Assembly: GCA_030704615.1 (NCBI GenBank)
Contig: CM060732.1
Span: 43,896,001-43,960,000, forward strand
Source of the DNA: Takakia lepidozioides
Taxonomy: Eukaryota > Plantae > Bryophyta
Reading direction: 5' to 3'
DNA: 64,000 nucleotides
Below the pieces are notes generated by a model that was not told the origin of the DNA, did not search any database, and saw only the letters and a program-made list of their open reading frames with translations. Positions 15,746-60,399 of this stretch are shown here, one piece after another (position 1 is the stretch's first letter; every line of letters starts with the position of its first letter). A program made the translations under genes and the position numbers.

Positions 15746-18700
15746 TTAGAGTCTTCTTTTGACAACAGTAGGTAGAATCTTTTGAAGAATATTGAAGCTG
15801 TCTCCCCCTTTTGCCACATCAACCGACTCTGCTGTCGGCATCTCAAACAGTTCCTTTTCCAAGATAGAATATGCATCTGCAAAGGCCTGTCAACACACAA
15901 AAGGTCCGAGCCAATTTCATTATAACCGACAGCTGAAGTATCAATGCTTGATATATCCTGGAGTCACGTTCCAAGATTCAGATGAGAAGTATCTGTTTTG
16001 CTTTTTGTTGTTAAAACGCTTCATTTGTGTGGAAATGGTGCTGCATTTCCATCTTACAGCATTCTGGCTTCAATGTTGCAATATGGACAGTACAATGCAG
16101 TTTAGAGGTCTCACACTTCTTTAGGTCACATCCTGGTTGCTAGTCAGTAAGAGTAAATGGAAATCCAGAAAATGTTTTCTACTGTGCTGAATGGATAAAA
16201 TCAACCTCTAGCATGTAACAAGCTCATAGCCATACACAACTTACAGAGTAACGAATCTTCAAAACTAAGGTTCTCTTGACATATCTATAGACAATCTAAT
16301 TATTCTACATAGTTAGCAGCTAGCCACTAAAGAGGTGGGGCAGGGTTTAAGGGACACCTTAACAATCTGCTGTATGCGGAAGCAGGTGCTGCCAACGTTG
16401 TTCTCAAAATCGAAGGGATCCTCTATATAGAGTGGATCAATGCTGCAATGATGTACCACCCCAGGAAAGTATGCCTAATTGAGGAAAGCGCAGAAGACCC
16501 CCTTTCAATAAAAAGTACTCAAGGTGCAATTTGGTGAATTGGAGATAGATGTAAATGGAAGGAGACAGTGACATAGATAATTCAGGGAAGATCAATACAA
16601 AGATTCCAGCTAGCACACATAGGACTCTTTAACAGTCCACAAGACACCTCATCCACGTGGGAAGGAACGTACTCATGGGTACTGCATACCATCCCGCAGA
16701 CAGAAAACAAAAATAAGGGGACCACAGACAATATCAAACACAGTGTGCCTAAGTGTATAAAAAGTGTACCTGAGGCTCCGATCTCGGCTCACATACCTCC
16801 CACCGGCTCGAATGCAAACACACATACGCCGAGGATCAAACACACACCTTCAAGATTACAGCTCAGTTGTCACTGCTTGTTAGTCTGTTTTCTTGAGATA
16901 TGTAGAGGTTTATAAGAAATGGTAGACACTCATCTCTGATGTCAAACTTTGCCTCAGACAGGTTCAACCTGGAATTTTACCGCGCAAATTAACACAATAA
17001 GCTTCTAACAAAGTATGTGTTCACTATGGAGAGGAGAACAAAAGAAATGAAATGGTACTTTATAACGTCCACGGAAAGCTCAAAGAGCTTATGGGACAAG
17101 AAAGAGCCAAAGAGCCAAAGAGCTTATCAAACAAGAAGGGGCCACGAGCAGCCAAAGCTGAAAGAAACCTTATAAGGGACACATAGGCCCAGCGTACAAC
17201 AAACAAAGAACAACTTCAGACAGAAAAGAAAGAACCAATATTATTTCCACAGGAAGCCTGGAGGGCCAGAGAGAGGGTAATTTCCTTACCCTAAGAAGAG
17301 AGGGTTTACGTGCATGTCCTTTTGCTTCTGTGAAGATGGTCACCTCAGACCACTCTGACCTGGTTAAGTTGCTCTCAGCGTGTTTCTATGATTGCGGATA
17401 TTCTGTGGGCTTACATTGGTTTACAATTTATTTTCAGGGGTGTTATCAGCTTTCCTGGTTGAGAAAAAATAGAGAGGAAAGAAATCTACCAATACACAGC
17501 AGGGGGGTGACAGAAAATTTTACCCAAAGAAGTGCAGAAAGTCCATAAAGAGGCTCCCCAAACTCTGCACCAATAGACATGTGTGCCAATATCATATAAC
17601 AGCACGATTGTCAACAACCAAGTAAGTTATTTCAAGTGGTCACACTGCTGTCGTTTGATTGTAACCAACCCAGGAAGATGACCTCTATAGGTAGACCATG
17701 TGGCCACTATGATGAGACAAGCTGTGTGCTACTTGGCTGTATATAAGTGAGCATTTAGCAGCTACAAGATAGAGAGACTTTTACTTGTCCCATCTACTGC
17801 AAAAAGCTACCTGGCTTGGAGAATGCCGGCCAACGTGTTGAAGAAAACGAGTGATCAGCAACACCTAGAAAATGTAGCACAGAAACCACTCAGAAAAAGC
17901 GCACTACCACCTATGTTTTAGCTGCAGACACATTCTAAGAGAAACAGTTGAAAGTCTTTTTATATTGATGATCGTGTCTCTCTGTCCTCTAGGAAGCCTA
18001 TTGCCATTGGGTGGACTTGATACGGGAGTACATTAATGTCTCTGTGACTAAATGCCGGCCTTGTGACCTCGTGTCCTTGTTTGTTTCGACCTGAAGCGCT
18101 TTGCTCCAGGTAAGGTAGTGCATTGGATTTAGTTGGAAAGCTTGGGGCCTTTCCCTCTTTAGAATATGCCTACACGGGCCATTCCCTGCAACTCCCTGGA
18201 GTGTGATCTCTGAATGGTAACAAGCGAACCCCTACCGCTTGGGGGCAGCCCCTCCGCCCAAATTGGGCAGTCGTATGCTCTGTATAGCATACTCGGCACT
18301 TGGGCTCGGGTTGGTTCCTGTGCTTAAACTTATAGCCTGCGAGATCAATCAAAATTTTAGCTCCTATCAACATCAACACTCCCCAGGGTGATTCCTGGGA
18401 ATTGGTTACTTATGCCAAATCTAGGGCTTCATGTGTAGTTTTTGGGGTGAATCCCAGGATGGACGATGTGTCCTTTAAAACTACATGCTCTAGCTTAGGC
18501 TTGGATTTCATGGCTAATGGTTCCATCTCGAGACTTGATAACAGGGGTACGTTGAAGGTTGCAATGACCAAAAGTGCTTCTAATAGAGTCCCACATCAAT
18601 TCAATCTCAAAGAAGTTCGTCCCTTGACTGGCTGGAGAGCGGTCTTAGACATTGGTGATTCAACAGGGCGCTCTAGGAAGACAACCAAGGGCAAGGACTT

Positions 18701-42484: not shown

Positions 42485-44711
42485 CTACACTTTCAATTTT
42501 GCGACCTCTTTACTGGAATCTGAAGCAACCTCTCTTTCCAGCTTTTCTAGCTCTTCTCTGGTGCGTGTTTCTTCCATTTCCAACTTGCGTCGCTCATCTT
42601 CTTCTTCTTCTTTCTCATCCTGGTCTTCAAACTCTTTCTGTGCAGCCATGGCTTTCAAAATAGGATCCCTGAGCACTGAGATCAGACCCCCACCAACCCT
42701 GTACTCAGCTTCATCACCTATTAGATACAGACGCTGGTCAGCTGCACTTGGGATGTCCACTGCCAGCAACTTGAAATCATACTGCAAAGAAACAACAAGA
42801 ATAGTCATAAACTTGAGCATACTTCACGATCCTGCCATTCATATTTCCTCAACCTTCCCCAAGTGTGGCCACCACATGACAAAAATAAACCTCATTTTCA
42901 CACCCAAGTTCAAAGCTGTCATGTCTTTTATCCTTCACTGGCAAAGGAAGGACTGCTGCATACAGAAAGTCATTCATGAGTAGAATGATCACAATGACTT
43001 TCAGGATTAAGCACCTCAAGTATGAGTGTAGTGGCACAGGCCTCTTCAATTTACTGTTTGCTTTTGGCAAACAAATAGTCATAACTTCCCTTATTCAATC
43101 CAAAACCCACTTACTACTTGACCGATCAACAGCCCTACCTGGCCTTTTTTCTTCTTCACTTCAATGCTGACGAGTCCACGCCTCTCAGCTCCCATAATCG
43201 GAAATATGATGAAACATCGCTTGCCACCCAGTCTAGGCCTGAAATTCTTGAAACGCAAGCCCCCCCCAGACATGACGTATGCACGGACATCTGTTCCTGT
43301 CAGTGGAGCCCCCATCATCTCCAACACTGATGCTGAGGTGTTGAGCTTCCGCATAGCAATTCTGTAGACTGCATCTGGATTTATTGTTAACCTGGCCCTC
43401 AATACAACACCCTGGAGCAGACAGGCAAGGTTTTTAGCTGCAACCCACGTGGTAAATCCACCAAAGAACAACCAGGATCCTTAATGAAGAAACAGAATTT
43501 GGTCATTGGAGACACCAAATGTGAATGGGATATGGTTGATACTTCATAATTTCGGGTTTGTCATTAGCTAGTGTGAGAATGGATCAATAATTGGATCCCC
43601 TAGCATTGGTTCTTAAATGTGAAGGTCATTCAGGGGTTTCCAGCCATTGAAGAAACATCATTTTGTACCAACAATTGAAGAAGACATTTAAACAGCAGAC
43701 TCTTGAAACCACAATGTCAATGGAGACAGACGAGACAATCACTTGAAAGAGCTGCATATTTGACTTATAGGTGCCCTCCTGCACAGTTCAGGAAAATGTG
43801 GCTAGTGTGCCTCGTGATTTCCCCACAAAATCCTCAAAACTCACCGCAATGGTCACCATTGCTGCTGCAAGCGCGAGGAAGCCAAACTGTGCCATGCCCT
43901 CTGAAAGCCCCACAAAAGTGTGGGCAATGCCAAACATAATTCTCCACAAAAAGAGACACACGCCTAATCCCACTGCTCCAACCACAACCAAATAATTCCT
44001 CTTCCAAAAGGCGTCCAACTGCAGCCCTACAGCCCCTCTGTAACGGGAAACAGACTTCTTTGCGGAGTCAAGGGGCTTCAGAATTCCCGATAGAAGCTCA
44101 TTGCTGCGGCCCTGAGCAGGTACTCCAGGTTTAACCCCAGCTTTAGGTCCCACATCGGTTTTCAGTTTTGGTAGAACTGCCTCCTTAAACTTCTCAGTTG
44201 AAGCCTTCAATCTTTCGGTCAATGTCGCTAGATTCCGCCGCACTAAACACGGTCCTCTTCCCTGCAAAACGGAACTACCCTGTTGGTTCAAGAGCGTGAT
44301 CCGTGGCATGTGTCTGTATTTCCCATTGAGCTCATATCCTGATGACCATTTTGCAGCACTGTAAGACCTTCTGCTTGCGCTAAAGACTGCATTGCCTACT
44401 GCTCTTGCATCCGAACCAAATGCCAAATCCCTTGTACGAAGAGACAACTGCGGGGAATGCAATGCTATCGCCTTTGATTGGGGAACAAGAAGACTTTGAA
44501 AACCCTCCGACGGCTTGCAATAGGCCGTCGCAAATGAAATAAATCGATCCCGCAAGTTCAACACACTTGCATCTGATATCGCTTGAGAGCCGTGGGCTTG
44601 GAACTGATCGGCAATCACGCCCACCCTACTGGGACAGGATGTAGACAAACCGCCCCTGTTCCAGTGCCCAAGAGCTTCGGTCAGAATGGCAAAGCCCTTC
44701 CTTAATGCCAT
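42485..44711 (-). CDS. Mitochondrial Tim21-like protein (At2g40800/At3g56430-type), 3 exons, 478 aa
   Basis: Exons 44711-43845, 43411-43139 and 42781-42485 (1437 nt, in frame). Conserved GLQLDAFWKRNYL, INPDAVYRIAMRKLNTSA, RAYVMSGGG, KKKKGQYDFKLLAVDIP and GGGLISVLRDP. Two hydrophobic segments and a basic N-terminus resembling a presequence. Confidence 0.88.
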
Positions 44712-45940
44712 CTCTCTCCACAATTTTGGCACATGTCCTAATCTACAAACCCACTATCAAAATTTCCTGCCAAGTAATCTCGCCGGATTCAACAAGCATA
44801 AACATAAACCCCCCCGATCCTTCATCGTGATCATCGGCCAGCTCCACCTCTCCACAGCCAACCCCGTCTGCACGAAGCAAGAGAGACGAGGAGACGAGCA
44901 GCATCCTCCTTTGTACGCCGGTAGCTTCTTCTATCTGCAGGACAATCCCTTGGAAGACATGATTTCTAAGCACTTCTGTTTACTTTAAAGAAAAGAAAGT
45001 ATGTCACTCATAGTACTTACAATCACAGAGGGACTCTGTTCAATTAGGACTTCCCCCTCTTTAGCAAAGAAGGAATTATGGGTTATTAGACACCTTTTCT
45101 CAAGGGGGATTCTGCATTATCCTTAAACTTTCCAACACTTTCTTAGGAAAGTTGAGAATTCCCATGAAGTAATACAATTTTGTAAGGAAAGGTGAAGGGA
45201 AATTCTGCAAAAAGGATACATGGGATAGTCTTTGAAAATTGAGTAGGTTTCTTCCTAGATTACTAGAAATGAGGTAAGAACTTAATGCACACGTGCAACC
45301 TCTGACAGGGCAGTAAGCCGGTTCCCGGCATGTCAAAATATCCCCGCCAGAGTGACATGGAGATGAAGGAGTGTAAACATGGATTCTTAGTATTTAATAG
45401 TGAAACCAAGGTAAGAGGGGGTGGGGAGGATTTGACAAGGGCCCTTGCGGAGGAGCCCTGGCTGTCAAAACCCGGCGAAAGTACCGTCAGATGGCACGGC
45501 ACAGTGCATTGAGTTATTACCTTATTCCTGGTGTCCTCCATTAATTTTATAGAAATAAGGAAAAAATAACCTTGTGAATAAGCGTCATGAAGTCAAACAT
45601 GTTCTTATTTGATAACTATCCATTGCATTGTTTTTTCCAAGTGAGTTGTTTTGGGGTTTTTTTTTTAACAGTCTACAGACCCTTTTTTTGGTGTGTGTAG
45701 CAAACATGCGATGCATTTCACTGTGAATGTAACGCAAAAGTTTACATGATCTCATATTGCGACCTTCTAATCCCGGATTTATAATCTATGTAGTGGACTA
45801 CCTCCAAAAATTGTTTATTGAACGTGATTACATGTTTGACCTTTCGGCTCTTGTTTCAGAGTTCAAGTTTTTGTTTGGGTTGCCTACATTTTCTTGCTGA
45901 AGACAAGAGAAAAAAAACCATGAAATAAAATGGTACTTTG

Positions 45941-48020
45941 TGTCACTAACATAGCCCAGAGGAACTTACCAGGAGTGAATATCAGAAGTTATCAAGTTAC
46001 CATGTTATTGAAAGTTACCATGACTTACCATGACTTACCATGATCTACCATAATTTATCATTACTTACCAAGTTACTGGGAGTTTACCAAATTACCAAGA
46101 GTAACTTCGAAAATCGCTGAGGAAGCTTCCTTTGGGGGAAACTTCTCCATGTGTGTAGACTATCGCGGTCTCAACTCAGTCACAATTAAGAATCGTTATC
46201 CGTTGCCGCTGATTTCTGGGCTTATCGACCAGCTGGGATGAGCAAAGATTTTCACCAAAATTTGATTTGAGATGAGCTTATAACCTTGTACGGATAAAAG
46301 AATGAGACGAATGGAAAACAACTTTTTGAACAAGGTATGGATATTTTGAATACAATATTATGTCTTTCGGTCTTACAAATGCTCTAGCAATTTTTCAACA
46401 TATGATGAATGACGTCTTTCGAGAATTTTTAGATGACTTTGTAGTCATCTATTTGAACGACATTTTGATATTTTTACAGAATGAAAAAGAACATTGCCGC
46501 CATGTACGCCTTGTCCTTGATAAATTAAGAGAAAGAGGACTATTTGTCAATTGGAAAAATGTCTTTTTCATCATCTGAGGTCAAATTTCTGGGCTACATT
46601 ATTTCCGACAAAGGCGTCTTTATGGATCAGAAGAAAATACAAACCGTCATCGAGTAGATTAAACCAACCTCGGTCCGAGATGTACAATGTTTTCTAGGAT
46701 TTGTAATTTTTAATAAAATCTTTATCAATGACTACTCCAAAATTGCTGCACCATTGACACGACTCATAGGGAAGGACAAATTTGTATGGGACGAGAAGGC
46801 TGACCAGACATTTGAAAGGCTGAAGCAGACATTTACAACGGCTCCAATATTGGTATATGCAGACCTATCTAAACCATTCTTCTTGGAAGTAGATGCATCG
46901 GACTTTGCACTTGGCGCTATACTCTCTCAATACGGTACGGATGGCCGACTTCACCCTGTTGGTTTTCGTTCTTGCAAATTTCCGCTGCGAAGATCAATTA
47001 TGAAATCCATGACAAAGAACTTCTAGCAATTATCGATGTTTTTGAGGAGTGGCGTCATCTACTAGAGGGAGCTAAACATCAGATCACTGACTACACCGAT
47101 CACAAAAATCTCGAATATTTTATGAGTGCTCGTGTTTTTACCTAGCAGGTGCATGGATGAAGCTATAGTTCTATTCCGTTTGGTGCGGCGAAGAGGTATA
47201 TTTACTGTTCTGTTTTTTGCGACCTGTGGGATTTTTACACCTGGGACAGAGGATTCATAAATGATTTTGAGTGCTGGCTATCAGGATCTCAGAAGTACTG
47301 CTGGATCTACTATTTTAACACATGAGGAAAAAGGAAAACAGTGGGGGAGAGGAAGGGGGGGGGGGGGAAACAGTAGAAGAAAAACACAGATGGAAAGCTC
47401 GAAGCATGGTTCATTGATCTCAAATCGATTTCAAGGACGAGAACATGACTGAACACAAATAAGAGATCAGACTAGAGGTACAAGACTAGACAAGAAGTCA
47501 AGGTCGGCGTGGCCGAATGTATGGTGGATAAACATGAATCAAGATGATCTTTATAACAATGGACAAGAGTACAAAATACTGGAACTCGACTCGAATACTG
47601 GAATGCTGGAAATTGGACTGGGGTACTAGATACTGGAAATTTGACTAGAATACGGGAAGCTGGACTGGAGTACTAGGACTGGGAACAAGAGTAGCTTGAA
47701 CTTGTGTTGGCGAGACTGAAGAGTGTCCAGTCTCGCCTCCTATATATACTGGCTACTAAGAAGTTCCCTAAGAAGCTTCCCCTATAGAGGTTTCTTGATG
47801 AAGAAGTTTCCAAGGTTAAACAAAGGTTTCTTGATAGAGAAGCTTCTTTAAACAAATGAGGTATCTTGATGGAGAAGTTTCCTAAAAAAAAAGCTTCATG
47901 AACAGTTTTTCATGTTACTCTTGGTAATTTGGAAAACTCTCGGTAACTTGGTAACTAATGATAAATCACGGTAAGTCATGGTAAGTTCCGTTAATGATCA
48001 TTTGATTCATGTTTATCCAC
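45941..48020. mobile_element. Left part of an older, rearranged Ty3/Gypsy (Tcn1/Tf-like) remnant: LTR fragments in both orientations plus RT/RNase H piece
   Basis: 45941-46150 (TGTCAC..., TTACC repeats) is the reverse complement of 60191-60399. An inverted LTR-like copy lies at about 47430-47990. Confidence 0.75.
46149..47137 (+). pseudogene. Decayed Ty3/Gypsy RT-RNase H fragment
   Basis: [36 protein letters not shown] (degenerate YLDD), [27 protein letters not shown] and TDHKNLEYF, with many stops and frameshifts. Confidence 0.9.
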
Positions 48021-48368
48021 TGTCAAGTTAAATAAGCACAGTGTGAAAACAACTAGAATAAAATTAGTTATTTGTATTTAACACTTGGATTTAGGTCAAG
48101 TGTTAAATCAGGTGTCAAGTTTAGTTTGACACCTGGTCCGTCTTATCTTCACGAGAGCGGCAGTCGCGCGGCTCATCTTTCTCGAGTTGAGCCTGCGCGA
48201 CCGAGCTCCTGCATGTGTTTAGATTTGAGTGTGCTTATGTAGGGGTACAGGTTGTTGTGGGGTGGAGTCCCCATAGCTTGGGGTGCCCCTGGCTCGACTA
48301 CTATTTTCTAAGAGTGATGGTTTGGTTTTCATGTTTTGTGTCACAGTGTGTTCGTTGGATTTCTATCA
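48021..48368 (+). repeat. Terminal repeat segment A1 (348 bp)
   Basis: Matches 59495-59842; two substitutions seen by eye. Confidence 0.95.
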
Positions 48369-48381
48369 CTCGAGAAAGATG
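48369..48381 (+). other. Putative self-priming primer-binding site
   Basis: CTCGAGAAAGATG directly after ...TTCTATCA is the exact reverse complement of CATCTTTCTCGAG at 48174-48186. There is no TGG tRNA-type PBS. Confidence 0.8.
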
Positions 48382-48460
48382 CTCTCTTACCTGTGAGTGC
48401 AAGGTAGGAGTTGAGGGTTAGCACTTGCAAGATTACCTGCGTATAAGTAGTGATTAGTTT

Positions 48461-48610
48461 GAGAAGCATATCATTGAATGTGACCACAAGATTCAGCGTG
48501 CCCTGAAACGCCTGGAGGATGACGATGCCAGAGCCGCCATTGTTATTGCAGTCGCTGAAGCTACCAAGTCACTAGAGGCTTTGGGGTACACAAGGAGATA
48601 CTTAAAAATG
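48461..48610 (+). pseudogene. LUC7: Captured LUC7 (U1 snRNP protein) gene fragment
   Basis: Translates EKHIIECDHKIQRALKRLEDDDARAAIVIAVAEATKS, resembling the plant LUC7 segment LIVECDRKIxRALKRLxEEDAKAAIAISV as I recall it. Confidence 0.72.
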
Positions 48611-49230
48611 CAGCAGCAAATGCTAGTTGGCACCTATGCATGATCCTTGAAGCTGGATGATCGTTTCACCAGTAAGCTTATAGAGGAGCTCTTCTGGTCT
48701 TGTGTGTCATGTCTGAAGGCTTCATTGCATACCACTGATCCTCTTTCAAAGGAACAACCGCTTGACTGTCCAGGCTTTGCAGAATCAGAAGCTTGAAGTC
48801 ACAACGAACGATGATGATGATGTGGAACAGTGGGTGGAAGCTTGTCTTCCAAATTTTTGGCAGCAGATGACACTGCAGCGCGGAAAAGAATGCCTTGCTC
48901 GGAAGAAGGCTCTGATCCAACTAGTTGTGTGTATCTGTGACTTGGCAGAGGACTGGGCATAAATGACATTTGGTGGGTCTCAAAAGTGGGTCCACATCTG
49001 AACGTTGTCACTTGGGGCTGCAAGTTATCGTGATTCAGGGGTGACTCTAACTGAATCACCATTGACAAGGACAGTAGTGGCAAGTGCTGTTTAGGGAAGA
49101 CACCACTGTGGACGACTTGATTCATGTGATAGAAGGCTAAATACAGCAGTGGTGGGACTAGCCAACAACCGACAAGGCAATCCAGCATGCAGTACCTGGA
49201 CAGTTTCTTTTTTTTTCAAAATGGATTGCA

Positions 49231-49810
49231 GGGATATCAGCAGATGAGAAGGCAAGACTGCTACACTGTGTTGTTGTAGGTGGTGGTCCTACAGGGGTGG
49301 AACTCAGTGGTGAGCTCAGTGACTCATCAGGAGAGACGTCTACGGCTAGTTCGGCCATGTGAAAGATTTTATCCATGTCACACTTATTGAGGCAAAGGAG
49401 ATTTTTTTTCATCTTTCGATGTTCGACTCCGGGAGTACGCGACCAGGCACCTGATCAAGGGTTTGGAGGGATAAGCTGGAGGGTCTTAAATGCATAACTG
49501 TTTTCAGACTGGGGTAAAGCTGATGCAAGATGTAGTCAAGGATGTTCTGCCAGACAAATTAGTGCTTACGGATGGGACGGAGGTGCCATACGGGCTGCTG
49601 GTTTGATCAATGGGTGTTGGATCTTCTTCCTTTGTCCACTCCTTACCTGTGAAGAAGTGCCCTGGTGGAAGCTTGGCAGTTGATCCAGTTACTAATGGAA
49701 GCCCTACCGCAAACAAAGAGTGTTGCTGAGAGACAAGGAAAGTACCTGGGCAAATCTTTGAACAAGCTGGCACAAGCAGGTGGTGGTCAGGTTGGGGTCC
49801 TTTTGTAGAT
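49231..49810 (+). pseudogene. NDA: Captured type II NAD(P)H dehydrogenase (NDA-like) fragment
   Basis: [31 protein letters not shown] / IHVTLIEAKEI / SFDVRLREYATRHLIK / short GT..TTTTCAG interruption / [28 protein letters not shown] / VAERQGKYLG, with frameshifts and stops. Confidence 0.88.
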
Positions 49811-50654
49811 ATTCTGTGGGCCTTTAATGAGCAAGTGATCCAACCATACTCTAAGCTCAGGCGTTGAGCAGCCTTACAGTGAATCTATAGGGTCCCGTGG
49901 GAACAATTTCTGCAGCTACACAGGGTGTGTAGTTGGCCTAAGAACAGCTTAGAAATGCTTCAGTGCAAGCCCTGGAAATTGTGGGCGTCAATGCCCGTTG
50001 CAGGAAAACATGAGAGATGCGAATTAGACCAAGTTGATGGAACTTCAAGCTGGTCTTGGCTTTGGATTCCATGCAAAGACGGCCACATCACAGCAGGCGC
50101 CTGTCCATAAGCCATGAAGGTGCTGCGCAGTGCATCTGCTCTGAAATCGCCCCAATTCCTGGTTTGTAGTCTCTAGGTCTCGAGGAGGCAGGCCCACGCG
50201 CAGAGAAAAGCAAATCGTGATACCCCACCCAACTGAGGTCGAGTGTTGGAATTAACGAGCTCTTGGTGCCTGGAGAATCCTGGAGGGGAACGACCTCGGG
50301 AACTCGTAGATAACCTGGGAACAGTTGTAATGGCAAAAGCGTTTTGGTGTTAAAAAAAAAAAAAAACCTTTTTGATCTAATTTAAATGTTTAAAGAGCCT
50401 GGTTGGTCATATCTTTGTCAAATGAGCTCCGTTTGACTCAGTTTTTGAGGGGATATCTGCAGAAAGGGGTTTCTGTTTTTGGGACTCTGCTAAAAATCTA
50501 TGGAATTTTTAGAGTGTGAGTGTGCCATGAAAGATCCACAATCCTGTCTCTAGAACCTGTGCTGGTCTATATTAGAGACAAATCTGTGGATGTACTCCTT
50601 GTATGGCTGGGGAAATGAGGACGTCGTTGAAGGGCAGGTCTCTTCTCTTAGCCT

Positions 50655-51356
50655 GTGCACCAAAGGGACAAGATTTATGTTTCCCAAGGAACTCAGACTG
50701 ATTTGAGTGGAGAACAGTTGGACGAGTTGATTGCATACTGGGAGTCAGGCATTAGCAGTAGACAACAGACTGCTGTAGTTGGCATTGAGGGCCTCAATAT
50801 CGCCTTGGACAGTCAGAACTCTGTTGGAGCCAGCAGTTCTGCAGCTGTAGGTGAAATACCAAAGTGGGTGAAAGCTAGGCTTGGAACACAGCCAAAGACA
50901 GCCCCGGGGACCAAGGTGTTCAGTCACAAGGCCGTGGTGTACTGGAGCAGAGGAGCAGGAGCTACACAAGTTTGTGCAATAGACAGTGTTGCAGTCGGAC
51001 ACGCTCTGCACAAGGCAACCACGAGCGGGGGTTCATTAGCGAGGACAAGTTTGTTCTGTTTGAAGGCGATGCAGTCATTCGCAATGAAGACACCCGCAAC
51101 CGTCTCAAAGCTTTCGAGTTGAGAGACTATCAGACCCTACCTTTGTTTTCTTTAGTGTTCAGTGAGCGGGAGATAGGGGAGTATTGCTTTGTCTCTACCT
51201 GGCAGAAAGAGGAGGGGGTTGGTTAGAGCGAGCTACTGTAGCTTGGGACAAGGTTAGTGGCAGGTTTCTGGACATAGATATACCTCCTACACCTTACCAT
51301 CATGCAGAGCGAGGCACTTTGAGAAGTCTGGCAGTTGATAGCATAGATCAGGATTA
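50655..51356 (+). other. Extra ORF of unknown function upstream of gag (apparently frameshifted)
   Basis: ORFs 50655-51122 and 50972-51226 overlap and read as globular protein (DLSGEQLDELIAYWES; GNHERGFISEDKFVLFEGDAVIRN..FELRDYQ). Confidence 0.4.
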
Positions 51357-52071
51357 GATCTTGCTTGGGCGCTTCTATTCTTCCCCTCCATCTCTGTACT
51401 ATTTTCATTACCTTGTACTGTAGTTGCCAAAGCTCTTGGTGGAGGCCAGTCAGTCCGGGGTTTTGGGCTGGGATATTCTGCAGGATCAGCATTGCAGCTG
51501 GATTTTGGTGTGGGGGTGTTGATGTTTTGATTTCTTGTGTTTGGATCCCCCCCAACACCTGCATGCTTGACTGTGCGCCATGTTGGTTTTGTGTGGGCGC
51601 TTGCTTTCATAGGGATTAGGCCGGATTTGATCACCGGTCAATCCTAGAGTATGCTGTCGGTGGTGAGGCTGGAGTGATGACCAGCAAGACCACCAGTGTT
51701 TCTTCTATGGTGAGGCTGGGTTGATGACCAGCCAACCATAGGAGTTCTTGCGGTGGATGCAGGTGCAGGTGCCCTGAGCCATTGGATATGACCCTTAAAC
51801 TGCAACAGGTGCCCACCCGTGTCACTATTAGATTAGTACTAGAGCCTTATAGTGTCACGTGGAGGAGGTGCACATTGTGAGTGTCATTACGGAGTTACCC
51901 AAGGGTTTTGAGGGGAGTACGGCTACAGCAGTAACAGTGAGAGTGGGTTCACAAGACGAGGTATTCGGTTCAGACCACCTTCACCGCCACCTCAATTACT
52001 GTAGAGTCAGACACAGACTCGGAGCTTCATCAACAAGTGTGCACTTTCATTCGCCATTGTTGTGGGACGAC

Positions 52072-53400
52072 ATGGAGGAGATGTATGGAGCTACCAAGGG
52101 GCCTCGTAGGTACTCTGGAGCTGTGGGCACAATCGAGTTGGATGACTTTATCCAGGAGTTCGACAGCTGGTGTGATTTGCAGCAGATGCGCAATCCACAG
52201 CTATTCACCCCATTCATGGCGTGGAAGGGACTTCCAGCATTTGGAAGGCCCGCCTATGGACGATTACCACGAGTTCAGGCGAGGACATGAAGCAGAGATT
52301 GAGGAGTGGAGGATGTATTGGTCACCTGACTACGTCTCCATTACTCGAGGCACGACGCGACCAGTAGCTGCATCAGTACCAATAGCTCCCACTGCCAGCA
52401 CTAGTAGTGGAGCAAGTAGTGCTGGTACTTCTGCAGGTGGTACCAGTTCAAAAGGTGCTACTACTCCTCCTGCCACGACTACAACACATGTGCCTAGATT
52501 CAACCCGGTGGTGGAGTTCTTCCAGGATTTGCGGAGGAACTACCAAGGTGTACGGACAGAGAAGCTGCGAAGTTTGCAAGACTTCCAGCGCAAACCCAGT
52601 GAGAGCCTGCGAGAGGCGTACACTCGTATGAGGCGCTTGATAAGTGTGACCCAAGGGGTTACTGAAGCTCAGGCAATCCAGTTTTGGTATGGAATTCTGG
52701 ACAAGGAGCTCAAGAGAAGGGTGCGAGATGCAACCCTGTTACAAGCAGCCCAACCCACATTAGCAGATGTGTTTCTGCTGGCTGAGCGGATTGAGCTCAA
52801 CATGGTGGAGGAGCGAGTTGTTACAATTGGATTTGGCAAGGACATGCCTGTACGGGGCACAGCTGTCAGCCCACAGGCACAAGGGACTGCCCAACAGCGT
52901 GGTCAGGGGGGCAAGGTTGCCCAGCCCAAGTTCCATGGAGCTTACAGGGGACCTCAGTGCAGAGGCCCGTGGCATCTTTTGCAGGCCAACAGCAAACCAG
53001 GGGTGATATGTTGGACATGTGGAGGACCCCATGTCAAGAGAGATTGCCCAGAGAGTGGCAGAAGGCCGGCACAAGCACAGCCTGCACAGTTGCAGTGTGG
53101 GCATTGTGGCAAGTATGGGCATGGAGATGCCCAGTGTTATGACTTGCATCCTGAGTTGCGCCCAGGCCAGTTCCAAGGGAACAATGGTGGCCGGGGGCGA
53201 GGTGGACCAGCCCAGAGAGGACGAGGTGGTCGGGCACGAGGTGCAGGCCAAGGGCAAGCTCAACATGGCCAAGGACGCGGGGTCAGGGCGTTGATCAAGG
53301 CATGGCCAACCGGCTTCAGCAGCTAGAGCAGAGGCTCGCTGCCATGGCTATATCAGCCGGTACCGGCTCCCAGGCGGGATGGTCCACCTCCTGCTCCTGA
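52072..53400 (+). CDS. gag: Gag (capsid-like region, two zinc knuckles, RGG-rich tail), frameshifted
   Basis: LDDFIQEFDSWC; FQRKPSESLREAYTRMRRL (MHR-like); CWTCGGPHVKRDC and CGHCGKYGHGDAQC. Confidence 0.88.
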
Positions 53401-53899
53401 GGAGGAGATATGGGAGGCATGGGATTTATGTGCGGAGCAGCACTACCACTAGAGCAGGTGGAGTCTGCTGCAGCCGTGACTCGAGGAGCAGCACGAGTTC
53501 CTGAGCCCACGAGGTGCAGAGGTGGAATTGGATCCACAGCGTGGGGAGGCAAGCCGTCAGGCAAGGCTTCCTCAGTCATTCACATTGGCGGAGACTGTGT
53601 CGACGCCATCCATGGCACCTAGTTCTCGCCCGACTGTTACCGAGGCGGAGGTTACTATGCCATTGGGAGAGCTACACGTGCAGCACTGACACCTGCCAAG
53701 GCTAGTGCGGCCGGTGTGTTATTGGGGGCAGCCACCTCTGTGTGTCAGCCCCACTGTTCTCGGCAACCATGATTGCGACGCCGGGGTGAGACCAGCTGCA
53801 GTGTTCAGACTAGCAGCAACACTCTGTGAGAGTGGGGAGGTCACTTCATCTTCTGCGGAGTTAGTGGAAGGTGTAGTGGCAGAGGGATCCTCGGATTTG

Positions 53900-54480
53900 A
53901 GGGTCAAGACTGCCACGGCTGCGCCATGGCAAGCTGCAGCTGCCAGGTTGACGGAGCTGCCAGCTAGGCCAGCCTTTGAGCGCGCCATGGTGACACCTGG
54001 AGTTGTCTTGTTAGACAACCAGGGAGGCATTTTCACTTTGAGTGGACCGGCAGGCAAGAAGTACCGGCCACTGCGGGTCTTGTTGGACTCAGGAGCTCAG
54101 CCACTGATGTTGGGCAGAGCTGCTATTGCAGGTTTGGGCCTCATGGAGGCGGATATGGAGCCTTGTCCTTTCCAGATACAGACATCTCTGGGAGGATCAG
54201 AGCAGGCTCGCGGCATGACACGGCATCAGTTGGCTATTAGACTGCAGCCGGATCATCCTGTAGATGGCTCAGTGATGCGAGCCAAGGCCATTGTGACAGA
54301 CGCGGTCTCTTACGATGTCCTCGTTGGTGGGGCAGTGTTATACCCCATGGGCTTCACCCTGGATTTCTGGGAGGAGTCAGCATCCTACAGGCCTGGATGG
54401 CAGTCAGGGGATGGTCGCCGTGCACAGCTCCCTGTGACATTCATTGGGGTATTGCAGCTGCCCAGCGGGGCAAGATGCCA
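53900..54480 (+). CDS. Aspartic protease domain of pol
   Basis: RVLLDSGAQPLML active-site motif and YDVLVGGAVL. Confidence 0.85.
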
Positions 54481-54797
54481 ACACTAGCCGCCTTCACAGC
54501 TGCAGTTAGTTGGCCTGGAGAGTTGCTGGAAGGCAATGCCCATGCAGAGGATGTGCCACCTCCAGCAGAGCAGGATGACATGCATGGTACGGCGGAGTTG
54601 CCTGCCATGGTTGCTCACACTCCGTTGTGGGGTACGAGCAAGGATTTGCAGCAAGGCTGCTGATGGACGGGTGCAACAAGCTTGGGTAGAAGCTTTTGTA
54701 CCGTCAAGAGGAGGAGAGTGCGGTGATTGCACCAGGGCCACCTCAGTTGTCGCCATTGGACACCACACCTCTTGTGTGGCAGCGGCCGGATGAAGGC

Positions 54798-55735
54798 ATT
54801 TGCCTTCTGGACTTGTTTGGCGGGATCAGCACCGGATTGGCTGCTGTGCTACAGGCAGGTGTGCGGGTAAGGCGTTACCTGTATGTGGAGAGGGATGAGA
54901 CTGCACGACGCGTCTCACTGCGCCATGTGGCTCAGTTGGTACAGCAGTACCCTGACTTGTTGCCTGTGTCTGCAGTTCGTGGATACCACAAGCCTTGCCA
55001 GCAGACATTTCCTTGTGGGGGCGCAGGATTTGGAGCAGGTTGGCTCCATTGTTCTGGTAGTGGCAGGTTGGCCCTGCCAAGGGCATTCATCAGCCGGGCA
55101 TGGCAATGGATTGCGAGACTCGAGGACGGGGTTTTGGGAGATGGTGCGGTTTTGCGCTGCTTGCAGCTTCATCAAGCTGTATCTCCAACATACATCTTGG
55201 AGAATGTACCACTGATGGGTGATTCTCGGGCCAGGGTGATGGCCAGTTGTGCCATCAAGTCGGTCGTGGCTTGGGTCAGCAGTGTTGCTGATGCAGCTGC
55301 AGGGGTCACGGGCTCATCGTCCACGACTATGGTGGACTAACTTGATGCCACCGCACTGCTCAAGCGTGCATGTTGTGATGGGTGCAGCGGCCAGCACACC
55401 TCACCGTGGATGGCATTTTGGACACAGGAGGCAGTCTCAATGTGTGAGACACGATGACCGTTCGCCTTTGGCAGTGGTCAACAGGGTGGGTTAACCACGA
55501 GCAGCATTACCTACACTGCTCAGCTCCCAGGATCCCATGCTTTTCGGGATGGTGGACCTGGCCTCTTGTGGGATGCTCAGTTGCAGCAGTTAGTGGACTA
55601 ATGCCGCACGAGCGAGAGCGGGCTATGGGGTTTTCCACTGGGACCACGGCGGTGCCTTCTCTTTCTGAGGCATCACGTCGTCAGTGTTGGGGCAAGCAAT
55701 GGATCTCAATTGCTTGACTGGATTGTCAGCTTGGC
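54798..55735 (+). CDS. DNMT3-like C5 cytosine methyltransferase domain of pol (frameshifted as assembled)
   Basis: Motif I LLDLFGGISTG (54804), II YLYVERD, IV VAGWPCQGHS (PC at 55072-55077), VI YILENV (E at 55200), VIII AHRPRLWWTNL (55312-55344), IX ERERAMGF (55610) and X RRQ-LGQAMD (about 55676-55704), in canonical order. Confidence 0.9.
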
Positions 55736-56179
55736 TATGAGCAACGTAGAGTGCGGAGTGCACTTCCCTTGACAGTCTCTCTGCCTACCGAGACGGTATA
55801 GGCAGCGAGTGGGGGCGAGCCGGTGAGGACCACGAGGTGTAGACATCCATGGCACATGTGGGAGGTGCTCGAGGTTCAGAGGGAGTTGGCAGCGAAGGCA
55901 GCTGTGATGGATGGGGTTGGGGATTTCTTCTCGAGATGAGGAGGTTCTCAATGATGAGATGATGGGGCAGGATGAGGCCTTGTCATTGACTGAGCAGGAA
56001 GGGGGTACTGCTCAAGAGGTTGCAGCATAGCAACCACGGGACGCGTCCTCTACCTCTAAGCCCACTGGACTTAAGGTTGCAGTTACGGAGGACAATTGGG
56101 AGCCTGACATTGGACCCATTGTCACCGGAGGAGAGAGACGAGTATACGGCGGTTCCTGAGGGCTTATAGGAATTGCTGT

Positions 56180-57520
56180 GCCTTCAGTTTGAAGGACTTG
56201 GGAGCACTGAAGGGTCAAGAGATCCGTATTGAGTTGGCCACTGACACCCAATCTTTCGGAGACCCTATAGATACAGTGACATGGAGAGGTCTTTGATTCA
56301 GATGAGGACTCAAGATCTCTGGGAGGCAGGTTTGGTGGAGCTCTCTGGTGGAGAGTATGCTTCAGCCACAGTGATGCCAGCTAAGAAGGATGTCTATGGC
56401 AATTGGACGGAGAGACGTATGTGCGGTGATTACCGGCCTGTAAATCGTCAGACCAAGTCCGATAGGTATGCCATGCCAACACCAGAGGAGATCTTGATCT
56501 TTGTGCCATTGGGCATTCCAAGGTCTTTAACACGTTGGATTTACGATCCGGATATCACCAGTTGCCGATCAAGGAGGCGGATAAGCAAAAACGGCATTCT
56601 GGGGGATCAATGAGCACGGGAAGGATTGCCTATACCAGTGGCGGTTCTTACCATTTGGGCTTAAAAACGCTCCCGCTGAGTTTCAAAGAGTCATGGACAG
56701 GATTCTAGCAGGGGTGGAGTTTGCTCGGTGCTACATAGATGACATCATCATCTTTAGTGCTACGGTGGAGGAGCATGAGAGACACCTTCAGGGGGTATTT
56801 GAGCGCTTGAGGACGCACGGATTGAAGTTACATCCGGGCAAGTGCAAGTTTTTCCACAACCAGATTGAGTATCTGGGTCACATGATATATCCTGGAGGAT
56901 TGGGGGTACAGCAGACTAAGGTAGAGTCCATTGCACAGGTTCCACGCCCACGGATGTGAGCCGAGTTCGAGCTTTCATGGGGTTAGCAAACTATTACAGA
57001 CGGTTTGTTAAGGGATTTAGTGCCATTGCAAAGGCTCTAACCAAGCTGACCAAGGTGGACCAGGAGTGGCAGTGGGAAGATGAGCAAGAACAAGCTTTTC
57101 AAGAGCTCAAGGCGAGGTTGACCTCGGCGCCCATCTTGAGACGACCTATCAGGGGGCGTCCTTTTCAGCTGCATACAGATTGGAGCATGCTGGGGCTTGG
57201 AGCGGTGCTCACACAGGTGGATGATGAGGGAAGAGAGTTCGTAGTGGCTTATGCTAGCCGCTCGAACAATGCTGCAGAGTCTAAGTATAGCTCATATGAG
57301 GGAGAATGCTTAGCTGCAGTGTGGGCCGTGGCACACTTCAGGTGCTATCTATACGGCAATCTCTTCACCCTTGTCACGGATCACCAACCACTCAAGTGGT
57401 TGATGGAGTCAGACAAGCTTACGGGGAAGCTTGCACGGTGGGCACTCATCCTTCAAGAGTATGACTTTCGGGTTTTGGTCAATCGCAATGCAGATGGGTT
57501 GAGTCGCAATCCATGCACGA
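56180..57520 (+). CDS. Reverse transcriptase and RNase H domains of pol (frameshifted)
   Basis: RMCGDYRPVN..DRYAMP, LPFGLKNAPAEFQRVMD, CYIDDIIIF (YIDD at 56732-56743), IEYLGHMI, LHTDWSMLGLGAVL, YSSYEGECLA and VTDHQPLKWL. Confidence 0.95.
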
Positions 57521-57899
57521 GCCAGCAGGATGACACTGGAGCTCGGTGGCATGGTGAGACGGACGAGGAGATGGTGCCGGATGGCATGCATCTGCATTTC
57601 TGTGTATCTTGGCAGCGGAAGGCCAGGTTGGACCTGCAACAGGGATGACTGTGGATCAAGTGTCTGAGGACCCTGAGGCCAGCAATGAGCAAGGTGGCGC
57701 CAAAGATATACATGAGGATTCAGCTGTGTTGGACTATCTTCGCACTGGAGACACGGCAGCCACTGTGACTGCCAAGGAGAGGGATCGGATCCTACAACGA
57801 GCCAAGAGGTTCAAGTGGGAGGGGACACACCTGCTCCGAGTGTGGGAGGATGGTCGAGTGAGGATTGTGCCTCACCCAACACAGCGGGCACGGTTAGTG

Positions 57900-58950
57900 C
57901 GGCATGCCACGAGGAGTTGGGGCATTTTGGGGTGCGACGCACCCATAGCCTACTGCAGGGGCAGTATTGGTGGCGTGGTATGCACACAGAGGTGCAACAA
58001 TTTGTGGCTAGGTGCATGGTGTGTGACAGGGTGCGTGCTTCATTCAACGCCCCTACTCCACAATTGCACCCTCTTCCGATCATGGGATTGGGCTACAGGT
58101 GGAGTCTTGACTTCGCAGGGCCGTTGCCACTGACCATGCGCCACAACAAGTACGTGTTGGTGATGGTGGAGCACTTCTCCAATTGGATTGAATTGGTTCC
58201 ATTGCCTGATAAGGCTAGTGAGGGAGCTGCGTATGCATTCTTGGATTGTGTGCTTAGCCGATTCGGTGCTCCAGCTGAGGTACTCACGGACCAAGGGAGA
58301 GAGTTCTTGGGGAGTTTCAGGCTTTGTGTGACAAGGCCTTGATAGACCACCGCACCACTTCTCGGGATCATCCTGAGGCCGATGGCTTAGCAGAGAGAGT
58401 TGTTCAGACAGTAAAGAGGGGTTTGCGCAAGTATGGCTTGCAGAAGGGACACCTAGGAGATTGGGACCTTCAGTTACCCTGGTTAGCCATGGGCTACAGG
58501 TTCAGCAAGCAAGCATCACTTGCCTCCTTCTCACCATACTTTCTTCTCTTTGGCCGAGAGCCGGATTTGCCTACATCCATTCGCAGAGAAGCTGCTACAG
58601 TTCTTAACCTTGACGATCTGGACGTATGGGCACGTGCATGTGAGCAGCGTGCAGAGTTGTTCAAGAGAGTCATGCCCATGGCTTTCGAGAACCTTGCCAT
58701 TGCACAACACCGTGATACGTTGAGGTATGCTACCATACGTGGTGGGGGCTATCGTCCTGGGGTTCGGAGATTCAACCCTGGTGACTATGTCTATCTGCAG
58801 CAGACTGCTCCTACGACCCTGGATGTGACTGCAGGACGTGTTATTTTGAGGGTACGAGAGGTCTTGCCCTCAGGCGTCTTGGTCTTGGAGGGTCGGGATG
58901 GCATAACTTGGAAGGACCATGTGCGTAATTGTGCGCCATGTCACCTTCCG
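57900..58950 (+). CDS. DDE integrase (HHCC zinc finger plus rve core)
   Basis: HEELGHFG..CMVC; WSLDFAGP; VLTDQGREF; HPEADGLAERVVQTVK; FSPYFLLFGREP. Confidence 0.95.
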
Positions 58951-59004
58951 AATGTCGATGGCAGGATTGACCCAAACCTGGCAGTGGTATCTGCAGGTTT
59001 GAGG

Positions 59005-59148
59005 TGCATGTTGTGTGGGTCTGCTAAAGGGGCAGCCACCATGCTGGTGTGTGATCGATGCTCTATAGGTTGGCATATGGGGTGCTTGACTCCACCTCTT
59101 GAGATGGTTCCAGATGGGGATTGGTTATGTCCACAATGCATTGGATAG
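59005..59148 (+). CDS. C-terminal PHD finger fused to integrase
   Basis: CMLCGSAKGAATMLVCDRCSIGWHMGCLTPPLEMVPDGDWLCPQC is a C4HC3 pattern with the conserved W; in frame with the integrase C-terminal half; stop at 59148. Confidence 0.92.
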   Translation, partial: CMLCGSAKGAATMLVCDRCSIGWHMGCLTPPLEMVPDGDWLCPQCIG

Positions 59149-59396
59149 TGGGAGTGGATACAACCATGGGAGGCTAACAAGCAACGCAAGGCCCAGCTAT
59201 AGGAGACCTTGAATACACGAAGTCCTGGCTCAAGTTCACAGATTGCAAGACGGCGACTAACGATGGGGCTACTCTTGTACCCGGCCTCTTGGTCTATAGA
59301 GTTTGAGTGCGATAGGGACAGTGATACAGGACTTAGTACGGCTATGGCTATTACGTCTTGTAGCTATCTGGAGGTAGAGGGACCTATCCACCAGCT

Positions 59397-59406
59397 AGGG
59401 GGGCGA
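59397..59406 (+). other. Polypurine tract
   Basis: AGGGGGGCGA lies one nucleotide before TGTGGTAAAC (start of B1). Confidence 0.7.
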
Positions 59407-59407
59407 T

Positions 59408-59928
59408 TGTGGTAAACTACTTTATTGTGCATATATGTGTGGTGTGGTTTGGACAGCGATGTAGTTGTGTAGCGATATGTATGCGCACGACAGCTGTCAA
59501 GTTAAATAAGCACAGTGTGAAAACAACTAGAATAAAACTAGTTATTTGTATTTAACACTTGGATTTAGGTCAAGTGTTAAATCAGGTGTCAAGTTTAGTT
59601 TGACACCTGGTCCGTCTTATCTTCACAAGAGCGGCAGTCGCGCGGCTCATCTTTCTCGAGTTGAGCCTGCGCGACCGAGCTCCTGCATGTGTTTAGATTT
59701 GAGTGTGCTTATGTAGGGGTACAGGTTGTTGTGGGGTGGAGTCCCCATAGCTTGGGGTGCCCCTGGCTCGACTACTATTTTCTAAGAGTGATGGTTTGGT
59801 TTTCATGTTTTGTGTCACAGTGTGTTCGTTGGATTTCTATCATTGTGGTAAACTACTTTATTGTGCATATATGTGTGGTGTGGTTTGGACAGCGATGTAG
59901 TTGTGTAGCGATATGTATGCGCATGACA
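59408..59928 (+). repeat. 3' repeat block B1 (59408-59492), GC, A2 (59495-59842), T, B2 (59844-59928)
   Basis: B1 and B2 are 85-bp copies differing by one C/T near the end (GCACGACA vs GCATGACA); A2 matches A1. Confidence 0.95.
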
Positions 59929-59932
59929 CCAC

Positions 59933-60399
59933 CATGCAGTCGGCCACGCCGACCTTGACTTCATGTCTAGCTTGTACCTCTAGTCTGATCTCTTGTTTAT
60001 ATTCACTCATGTTCTCGTCCTTGACAGTTTGGCGAGACTAAAGAGTATCCAGTCTCGTCTCCTATATATACTGGCTACTAAGAAGTTCCCTAAGAAACTT
60101 CTCCTATAGAGGTTTCTTGATGAAGAAGTTTCCAAGATTAAACAAATGTTTCCTCATGGAGAAGCTTCCTTAAACAAAAGAGGTATCTTGATGGAGAAGT
60201 TTCCTCCAAAGGAAGCTTTCTGAGCAGTTTCCAAGTTACTCTTGGTAATTTGGTAAACTTCCGGTAACTTGGTAACTAATGGTAAATCATGGTAGATTAT
60301 GATAAATTATGGTAAGTCATGGTAACTTCCGATAACATGGTAACTTGATAACTTCTGGTATTTACTCCTGATAAATTCCTCTATGCTATATCCGTGACA
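59933..60399. mobile_element. Right part of the older Ty3/Gypsy LTR remnant
   Basis: 59933-60024 is the reverse complement of about 47431-47523. 60028-60330 matches 47707-47990. Ends GTGACA at 60399. Confidence 0.78.

Follow-up and report, generated by a model that had tools for sequence, protein, structure and literature searches.

Organization of the element

An element of 11,908 bp (11.9 kb) with TGTCA...TGACA ends was found at positions 48021-59928 of the window, that is, of the whole stretch of 64,000 nucleotides of Takakia lepidozioides DNA that was analyzed (Table 1). Pfam searches revealed the order Gag-PR-RT-RH-IN with a DDE-type integrase, which is that of Ty3/Gypsy elements, and the element's TG...CA ends, short target site duplication (TSD), primer-binding site (PBS), and polypurine tract (PPT) are those of LTR retrotransposons. 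However, two whole LTRs, one per end, were not found, and the arrangement A...B-GC-A-B was present instead. The element is a Gypsy element by its proteins and atypical by its repeats. No tyrosine recombinase family was detected by Pfam among the frames scanned, which contain the rve and H2C2 integrase domains instead; membership in DIRS/Ngaro was rejected on these grounds. A cytosine methyltransferase domain (DNMT) occupies the interval between the protease and the reverse transcriptase, and the motif positions confirmed this placement, which had been predicted from the sequence of the window.

Table 1. Features of the element in the window.
Feature	Position	Strand	Evidence
Left TSD copy, CCAC	48017..48020	.	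Identical to 59929-59932
Repeat A1, 348 bp, TGTCA...TATCA, 3′ part of functional LTR	48021..48368	+	Comparison with A2
Predicted self-primer (RNA 5′ end)	48174..48186	+	Exact 13-nt complement of 48369-48381
Primer-binding site, directly 3′ of A1	48369..48381	+	Complement of 48174-48186
Leader, 3.7 kb	48382..52071	+	Inside TSD
Gag with zinc knuckle (CCHC at 53096)	52072..53330	+	tblastn of P0013 from residue 1; Retrotrans_gag E 0.004 (weak)
Aspartic protease (LDSG at 54083)	54060..54400	+	Pfam E 0.01, below cut-off; tblastn
DNMT3-like C5 cytosine methyltransferase domain, motifs I-X	54798..55735	+	Motif order, homologue search, frameshift-aware alignment, PDB/Foldseek ranking of relative
Motif I, LLDLFGGISTG	54804	+	
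Motif II, LYVERD	54879	+	
Motif IV, GWPCQ	55072	+	
Motif VI, ENV	55200	+	
Motif VIII, HRPRLWWTNL	55315	+	
Motif IX, ERERAMGF	55610	+	
Motif X, GQAMD	55690	+	
In-frame TAG then CAA CCA, likely readthrough site between Gag-PR-DNMT and RT-RH-IN-PHD	56028..56036	+	Junction comparison
Reverse transcriptase (YIDD at 56732)	56250..56950	+	RVT_1 E 1e-24
RNase H	57073..57462	+	RT_RNaseH E 5e-37
DDE integrase, H2C2 zinc finger and core	57890..58900	+	Integrase_H2C2 E 1e-15, rve E 4e-11
PHD finger, integrase C-terminus	59005..59139	+	PHD E 1e-10
PPT-like G-rich stretch directly before B1	59397..59406	+	Identical position in relatives
Repeat B1, 86 bp, 5′ part of functional LTR	59407..59492	+	Comparison with B2
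Palindrome GACA-GC-TGTC at B1/A2 joint	59489..59498	.	Two middle bases missing from element's ends
Repeat A2	59495..59842	+	Comparison with A1
Repeat B2, ...TGACA, right end of element	59843..59928	+	Comparison with B1
Right TSD copy, CCAC	59929..59932	.	Identical to 48017-48020

The leader is approximately 2.5 kb longer than those of the relatives, in which about 1.5 kb lie between the start of A and gag. It contains a decayed fragment of a pyridine nucleotide-disulphide oxidoreductase at about 49160-49700, with a GGGPTGVE dinucleotide-binding motif and a Pyr_redox_2 match (E 6e-4) below the cut-off. This fragment, presumably resembling type II NADH dehydrogenase, is possibly a transduced host sequence.

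The DNMT3-like domain and its conservation

In the translation of 54300-56300, the motifs of the DNMT domain were found in the canonical, unpermuted order, and every C5-methyltransferase motif named in the original prediction, the catalytic PCQ and ENV included, was located between the DSG of the protease and the YIDD of the reverse transcriptase. The motifs of the window copy are distributed over three reading frames. A frameshift-aware alignment, in which an X was placed at each break, gave 240 identities in 333 positions (72%) with the related protein P0003 and 237 in 332 with P0002; it contained one in-frame stop, at 55492, and 11-12 frame breaks, in all but one of which a base is missing. 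The catalytic PC, ENV, and RxR residues are all present. Because of the frame breaks, the single open frame 54690-55337 gave no Pfam match on its own, DNA_methylase included, though the PF00145 search that had been proposed as a check succeeded with 19 of the 24 longer homologues scanned, several of which carry Gag upstream. When the first 65 residues of the window domain were used alone as the query, 74 proteins were found (best E 2e-27), which indicates that the likeness is not due to chance. It is almost certain that the domain is DNMT3-like and that the window element belongs to this family.

PDB sequence searches with the intact relative P0002 gave DNMT3A as the best match (E 6e-12), followed by DNMT3B/C and then by DRM and bacterial methyltransferases. 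The predicted structure of the same relative had a pLDDT of 94.5, and its top Foldseek matches were all DNMT3A/B/C (E 1e-18); an earlier AlphaFold model built from a 12-row alignment (pLDDT 46) was set aside. The DNMT3 affinity originally claimed thus holds in both sequence and fold for this relative. A DRM or CMT identity was rejected; DNMT3A ranks ahead of DRM among the PDB sequence matches, and the motifs are not permuted, unlike those of DRM. The domain shares the catalytic motifs and fold of the host DNMT3 enzymes (human DNMT3A/B; plant DNMT3; DRM2), which are its best PDB matches, but its identity to host DNMT3 is approximately 22%, and it is located in Gag-PR with neither introns nor reader domains.

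The catalytic residues are strongly conserved among the 103 aligned relatives: the Cys was present in 102 of 102 non-gap rows, the Glu of motif VI in 102 of 103, and the two Arg residues of motif VIII in 99 and 101 of 102, respectively. In motif IV, EC takes the place of PC in 46 of 102 relatives. A G-patch was present in two DNMT relatives. Nei-Gojobori dN/dS values were calculated for hand-picked sets of 8 and 6 sequences that included the window, with synonymous sites near saturation between subfamilies. The values for DNMT between subfamilies were 0.07-0.25 (several pairs saturated) and those for RT-RH, where computable, were 0.045-0.08. Among close moss-type copies, the values were 0.41-0.91, as expected from decay after insertion. 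The DNMT domain is under purifying selection between subfamilies and its catalytic motifs are kept, so that the neutral evolution with lost motifs that would have spoken against the prediction was not seen.

Distribution and phylogeny

The domain is not confined to the window copy. Among the 74 homologues, 25 come from named plants (Marchantia 20, Calypogeia 4, and Sphagnum 1), and a metagenome scan gave 77 loci with a related element, some of which are one insertion in different samples. These loci are termed moss-type from their likeness to the named bryophyte matches, a term that says nothing of their host. Other copies of the family therefore carry the domain as well, contrary to the one-off insertion considered with the original prediction. 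The contigs of three DNA runs covered all 30 bins of 53600-56800 (PR-DNMT-RT) with thousands of variants, which fits a high-copy family, although depth is no copy number. Run X5, which is RNA only by guess, gave no cover over 54991-55632.

A search of 1.84 billion representatives yielded 269 clusters at E 1e-30 or better. In the 149 further representatives listed, DNMT was located after the protease or before RT in 15 and after RNase H or before the integrase in 74, and the other 60 were fragments. A quick tree of DNMT (102 rows, midpoint root, without host DNMT3 sequences) separated these two positions into two clades of 28 and 74 rows (SH-aLRT 99). The window was placed in a 12-row bryophyte-type group (support 100) inside the 28-row clade, together with the PR-DNMT protein GAQ93235.1 of Klebsormidium nitens and with Closterium proteins. 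In an RT-RH tree of 35 rows, the 9 rows with DNMT before RT grouped together (support 100). Of the phylogeny that the prediction had called for, the grouping with algal retrotransposon DNMTs (the 28-row clade, SH-aLRT 99) was obtained.

The position of the K. nitens and Closterium proteins in these trees fits vertical descent in streptophytes, and the lineage likely goes back to a streptophyte ancestor that it has in common with the Klebsormidium and Closterium elements. Because at least 74 further representatives place the domain after RNase H, the capture of DNMT appears ancient and broadly distributed among green plants, and not specific to K. nitens. Among 20 DNMT-after-RH or unplaced proteins and others that were looked up, one came from Scenedesmus. 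Its chlorophyte-type PHD Gypsy element (pol KAF8056149.1) resembles the window element in having a related DNMT3-like domain and an integrase-PHD, but its DNMT is located between RH and the integrase in one ORF and belongs to the separate clade of the DNMT tree.

A conserved stop codon between DNMT and RT

In the window, the N-terminus of Pol continues in the frame of the TAG at 56028 after CAA CCA. Thirty-six distinct junctions were compared, namely those of 39 of the 77 loci and the window minus four exact duplicates. With a search pattern that fixed part of the flanking context and left the codon free, 34 of the 36 had an in-frame stop followed by CAA-CC(A/C); the codon was TAG in 26, TAA in 8, and TAC in 2, the two TAC junctions likely being one insertion. 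One metagenome locus (L015) is open from motif I to a TAG CAACCA located 113 codons past motif X, after which 766 open codons contain RT and integrase. Four long related proteins, namely P0013 (the naturally open Marchantia Mp_4g09160), P0008, P0015, and P0003, terminate 76-98 residues past motif X. In the partial Marchantia gene model P0024, DNMT is joined to RT and the linker is skipped, which may represent a predicted intron across the stop. In Closterium and further relatives, DNMT and RT are in one frame.

CAR YYA after UAG is the readthrough signal of TMV, and 6-32% readthrough was reported in plant reporters (PMC2754532). Only the window and L015 among the 36 junctions matched CAR-YYA fully, and 33 read CAACCC. 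The full readthrough context occurs at 8 of the 1525 TAG triplets of the window. RNA folding 3′ of the stop gave no shared structure in three sequences.

Since a conserved in-frame stop separates DNMT from RT-RH-IN, the DNMT of the bryophyte lineage closes the Gag-PR frame and would likely be produced at the Gag level. This stop predicts many enzyme copies per particle. The original prediction that the enzyme is made as part of pol needs correction in this respect: the domain shares a frame with PR, but not one open frame with RT, given the TAG or TAA in 34 of the 36 junctions. As judged from the junctions, Pol is quite probably produced by stop-codon readthrough; splicing or reinitiation could be alternative sources.

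Split repeats, priming, and the predicted integration route

The repeats are arranged in the order A1 ... PPT-B1-GC-A2-B2. These split repeats, the self-primer, and the PHD finger had no place in the original prediction. A1 and A2 differ by 2 substitutions in 348 bp without indels, and B1 and B2 by 1 substitution in 86 bp. An inverted paralogue of the empty site (47471-47560) has CCAC once. The self-primer and the PBS pair over 13 of 13 nt in the window, and a different complementary pair was found at the same place in the moss-type loci, in which 16 of 16 left ends showed 8-22 nt of complementarity with at most one mismatch (the weakest being L048 and L009). No tRNA PBS was found, the only tRNA gene of the window, a tRNA-Trp gene at 40373-40444 (+), lying elsewhere. 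From the positions of the PPT and the PBS, the functional LTR is therefore B-GC-A.

A directly abuts host DNA and is never preceded by B at 17 of 17 distinct left ends, which comprise the window and 16 moss-type insertions taken from 19 loci (L001, with no gag following, was excluded). Right ends of the form B-NN-A(-B) after the PPT were observed in the window, L004, L027, L046, L056, and L065, and right ends consisting of PPT-B only in L008, L013, L029, L036, L054, and L074 (6 of 12 complete right ends). The PPT-B-only insertion of L029 is complete with a 4-bp duplication; either 1-LTR-circle products or B1-B2 recombination explains such ends. L050/L053 have a B-A fusion with a deletion, and L016 ends at a contig end. 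The 4-bp duplication was exact in 4 of 5 complete insertions, and the fifth had 1 mismatch. In two truncated insertions (L023/L024 and L035/L067), the exact first base of B is joined to non-PPT sequence, which is natural if the start of B is a physical end of the cDNA.

The inserted arrangement A...B-GC-A-B has the form expected if the ends of the cDNA were joined and the product were opened within its left LTR, at the palindrome GACA-GC-TGTC. On the basis of these repeat structures, and as the permuted LTR itself suggests, integration would probably, with moderate confidence, use the palindrome inside the left LTR. Insertions of the form A-B-A...B, which would also be expected from a symmetric 2-LTR circle, were not seen among the 17; our guess for the choice of the left palindrome is that it becomes double-stranded first during strand displacement. 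Because the LTR is permuted, LTR finders would miss such elements.

Two additional right-end structures were observed. In L023 (13289-13570), a partial A is followed by 15 nt beginning with the PBS sequence and then by B, which looks like an end-to-end joint with residual primer sequence. At 15756-17324, L036 carries another integrase-PHD element, which is more distant (48% identity) and also ends in B-NN-A-B, with a GACA-GT-TGTC joint; split repeats may therefore extend beyond the DNMT family.

Relation to known elements

The algal and dinoflagellate cases mentioned in the original prediction are those of de Mendoza et al. (2018, PMC5890265), who described KnitGypsy-Dnmt3 of Klebsormidium nitens and elements of Symbiodinium. 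KnitGypsy-Dnmt3 is a Gypsy element with an unpermuted DNMT3-like domain, DIRS-like repeats, and purifying selection. In these respects it resembles the window element, and GAQ93235.1, which is assumed to be the published element, belongs to the same DNMT clade. On the other hand, its authors state that DNMT is in one ORF with RT and RNase H, whereas a conserved stop lies between them in the window element; the window element is found in a land plant in many copies, whereas KnitGypsy-Dnmt3 is from an alga; and the available text of PMC5890265 makes no mention of a self-primer, palindrome, TSD, or PHD. The window element is a variant of the KnitGypsy-Dnmt3 lineage and not the same element. SymbioDIRS-Dnmt3 and SymbioLINE-Dnmt likewise carry a C5-methyltransferase on a retrotransposon, but are of other retrotransposon classes, in contrast to the window element with its DDE integrase and 4-bp TSD.

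A PBS complementary to a site in the upstream LTR, the predicted 5′ end of the RNA, is shared with Tj1/Tf1 (PMC4600332) and with the moss Tcn1 clade, for which a Tf1-type self-primer has been predicted (PMC6317226). Tj1 of S. japonicus self-primes and depends on a stop codon that terminates Gag (PMC4600332); its stop precedes PR and its LTRs are ordinary, whereas the window element has a split LTR and a stop located after PR-DNMT. The foamy-virus integrase can cut the palindromic 2-LTR joint into processed ends (PMC1180852), which resembles the proposed use of an internal palindrome, but the palindrome of the virus is the LTR-LTR joint, while that of the window element is inside the LTR and yields a permuted insertion.

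In agreement with the original prediction, which knew of no characterised land-plant case, our literature search, with most subscription papers and Repbase outside its reach, found neither a land-plant DNMT retrotransposon nor an account of split-repeat Gypsy integration. PMC12344493 mentions retrotransposon DNMT3s in streptophytes, citing de Mendoza et al. The range of DNMT-bearing retrotransposons, previously one alga, is extended by the present results to land plants, the model liverwort Marchantia included. The question why a transposon keeps a silencing enzyme becomes testable in Marchantia, for which methylation mutants, methylomes, and near-intact Gag-PR-DNMT frames exist. In addition, retro-DNMT3 gene models are numerous and confound the DNMT inventories of bryophyte genomes.

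Proposed life cycle and alternative explanations

The steps of the proposed cycle are as follows. The RNA would begin inside A1. Most ribosomes would halt at the TAG to give Gag-PR-DNMT, and a minority would read on into Pol; the protease would release DNMT within the particle. RT would self-prime, the 13 nt at the 5′ end of the RNA serving as primer, and produce a B-GC-A...B-GC-A cDNA, which DNMT would methylate. The cDNA ends would then join head to tail, and the integrase would attach at the internal palindrome of the left LTR with loss of the two middle bases, giving A...B-GC-A-B with a 4-bp duplication.

Taken together, an 11.9-kb Gypsy element in which a DNMT packaged at the Gag level likely methylates its own cDNA, with Pol likely made by readthrough, is the reading that we consider reasonably probable. 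The single step of methylation of the element's own cDNA is given slightly better than even chances. The CG and CHG depletion of the element showed no clear difference from that of its flanks. More tentatively, and with less than even confidence, it is possible that a Gypsy clade alive in mosses and liverworts uses a DNMT3 at capsid stoichiometry to pre-methylate its cDNA and integrates through the left-LTR internal palindrome of end-joined cDNA. If true, the retrotransposon would be self-methylating and would integrate by a route that differs from that of standard LTR elements.

Methylation of cDNA in the particle is not the only conceivable function of the enzyme. Its main substrate might be the target site or host chromatin, methylated at the time of integration or later with the integrase PHD finger as guide, and this is the least improbable of the alternatives, although unlikely. 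Host DNMT3s use chromatin-reading domains, which counts for a PHD-guided enzyme, as does the occurrence of DNMT and integrase-PHD together in 45 of the 149 further representatives listed, with DNMT next to the integrase in 74. However, the stop between DNMT and integrase-PHD in the window lineage leaves most DNMT molecules without a PHD, and PHD fingers are also present in Gypsy elements of Chlamydomonas (PMC9940879, PMC2774666, and PMC11982613), one of which has no DNMT listed.

We consider it somewhat more unlikely that a non-catalytic or RNA-directed function, such as nucleic-acid binding, RNA methylation, or a decoy against host silencing, accounts for the retention of the domain. The K. 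nitens domain showed no DNA methylation in yeast, a result that the authors regard as inconclusive, and the same authors raise RNA methylation for LINE DNMTs (PMC5890265). The frequent EC in motif IV is also in its favor. Against it, the catalytic Cys, Glu, and both Arg residues are near invariant, the fold matches the DNA-acting DNMT3, and the related SymbioDIRS-Dnmt3 enzymes of Symbiodinium methylate CG de novo in yeast (PMC5890265).

Another reading with the same architecture, to which we assign little probability, has Pol arising from splicing or from reinitiation and attributes the split repeats to a DIRS/PAT-like template route that uses B2 in the RNA instead of to end joining. DIRS-type split repeats show the repeat order found here, most moss-type junctions deviate from CAR-YYA at its final base, and the A-B-A...B insertions were not seen. 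On the other hand, Pol continues in the reading frame of the stop, after which the codon CAA is fixed, the conserved self-primer and PPT are those of ordinary LTR reverse transcription, and two insertions have truncated internal ends to which the start of B is joined exactly. Finally, the broken window copy and the host-like fragment in the leader might speak for a host DNMT3 pseudogene captured only once, or for a chimeric assembly. This explanation has a negligible probability and was ruled out by the same position of DNMT in mosses, liverworts, and algae, by public DNA-run contigs that cover the PR-DNMT-RT stretch, and by the low dN/dS.

State of the window copy and its surroundings

By its repeats the window copy is young, with 3 differences in 434 bp, and yet it reads as broken. 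Its DNMT and RT-RH segments contain 14 frame breaks versus 1 stop, whereas in decayed loci each segment has 0-3 breaks and as many as 4 stops. In all 12 indel rows listed, out of 53 among the DNA-run variants, it is the window that lacks the bases; of the 11 rows that concern a single base, 9 shorten a run of identical bases. By our own estimate, most of the frame breaks are fairly probably long-read assembly errors. The absence of indels between the repeat copies counts against assembly error, and it is also compatible with the movement of a decayed copy in trans.

The element is inserted in an older repeat (flanks 45941-48020 and 59929-60399), which contains an RT/RNase H relic at about 46130-47030. 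The flanks share a direct repeat (47707-47987 / 60029-60308, 88.6%) and inverted matches (47431-47527 / 59929-60024 and 45941-46150 / 60191-60399). A host gene exon was found at 43788-44753 (−), the best named matches of which are from Sphagnum, Diphasiastrum, and Physcomitrium (45-54%); in angiosperms, its relatives bear the name import inner membrane translocase subunit. These matches, together with the bryophyte names among the DNMT relatives, point to a non-seed land plant as host, likely a moss or liverwort. A 330-bp imperfect palindrome is present at 38923-39252.
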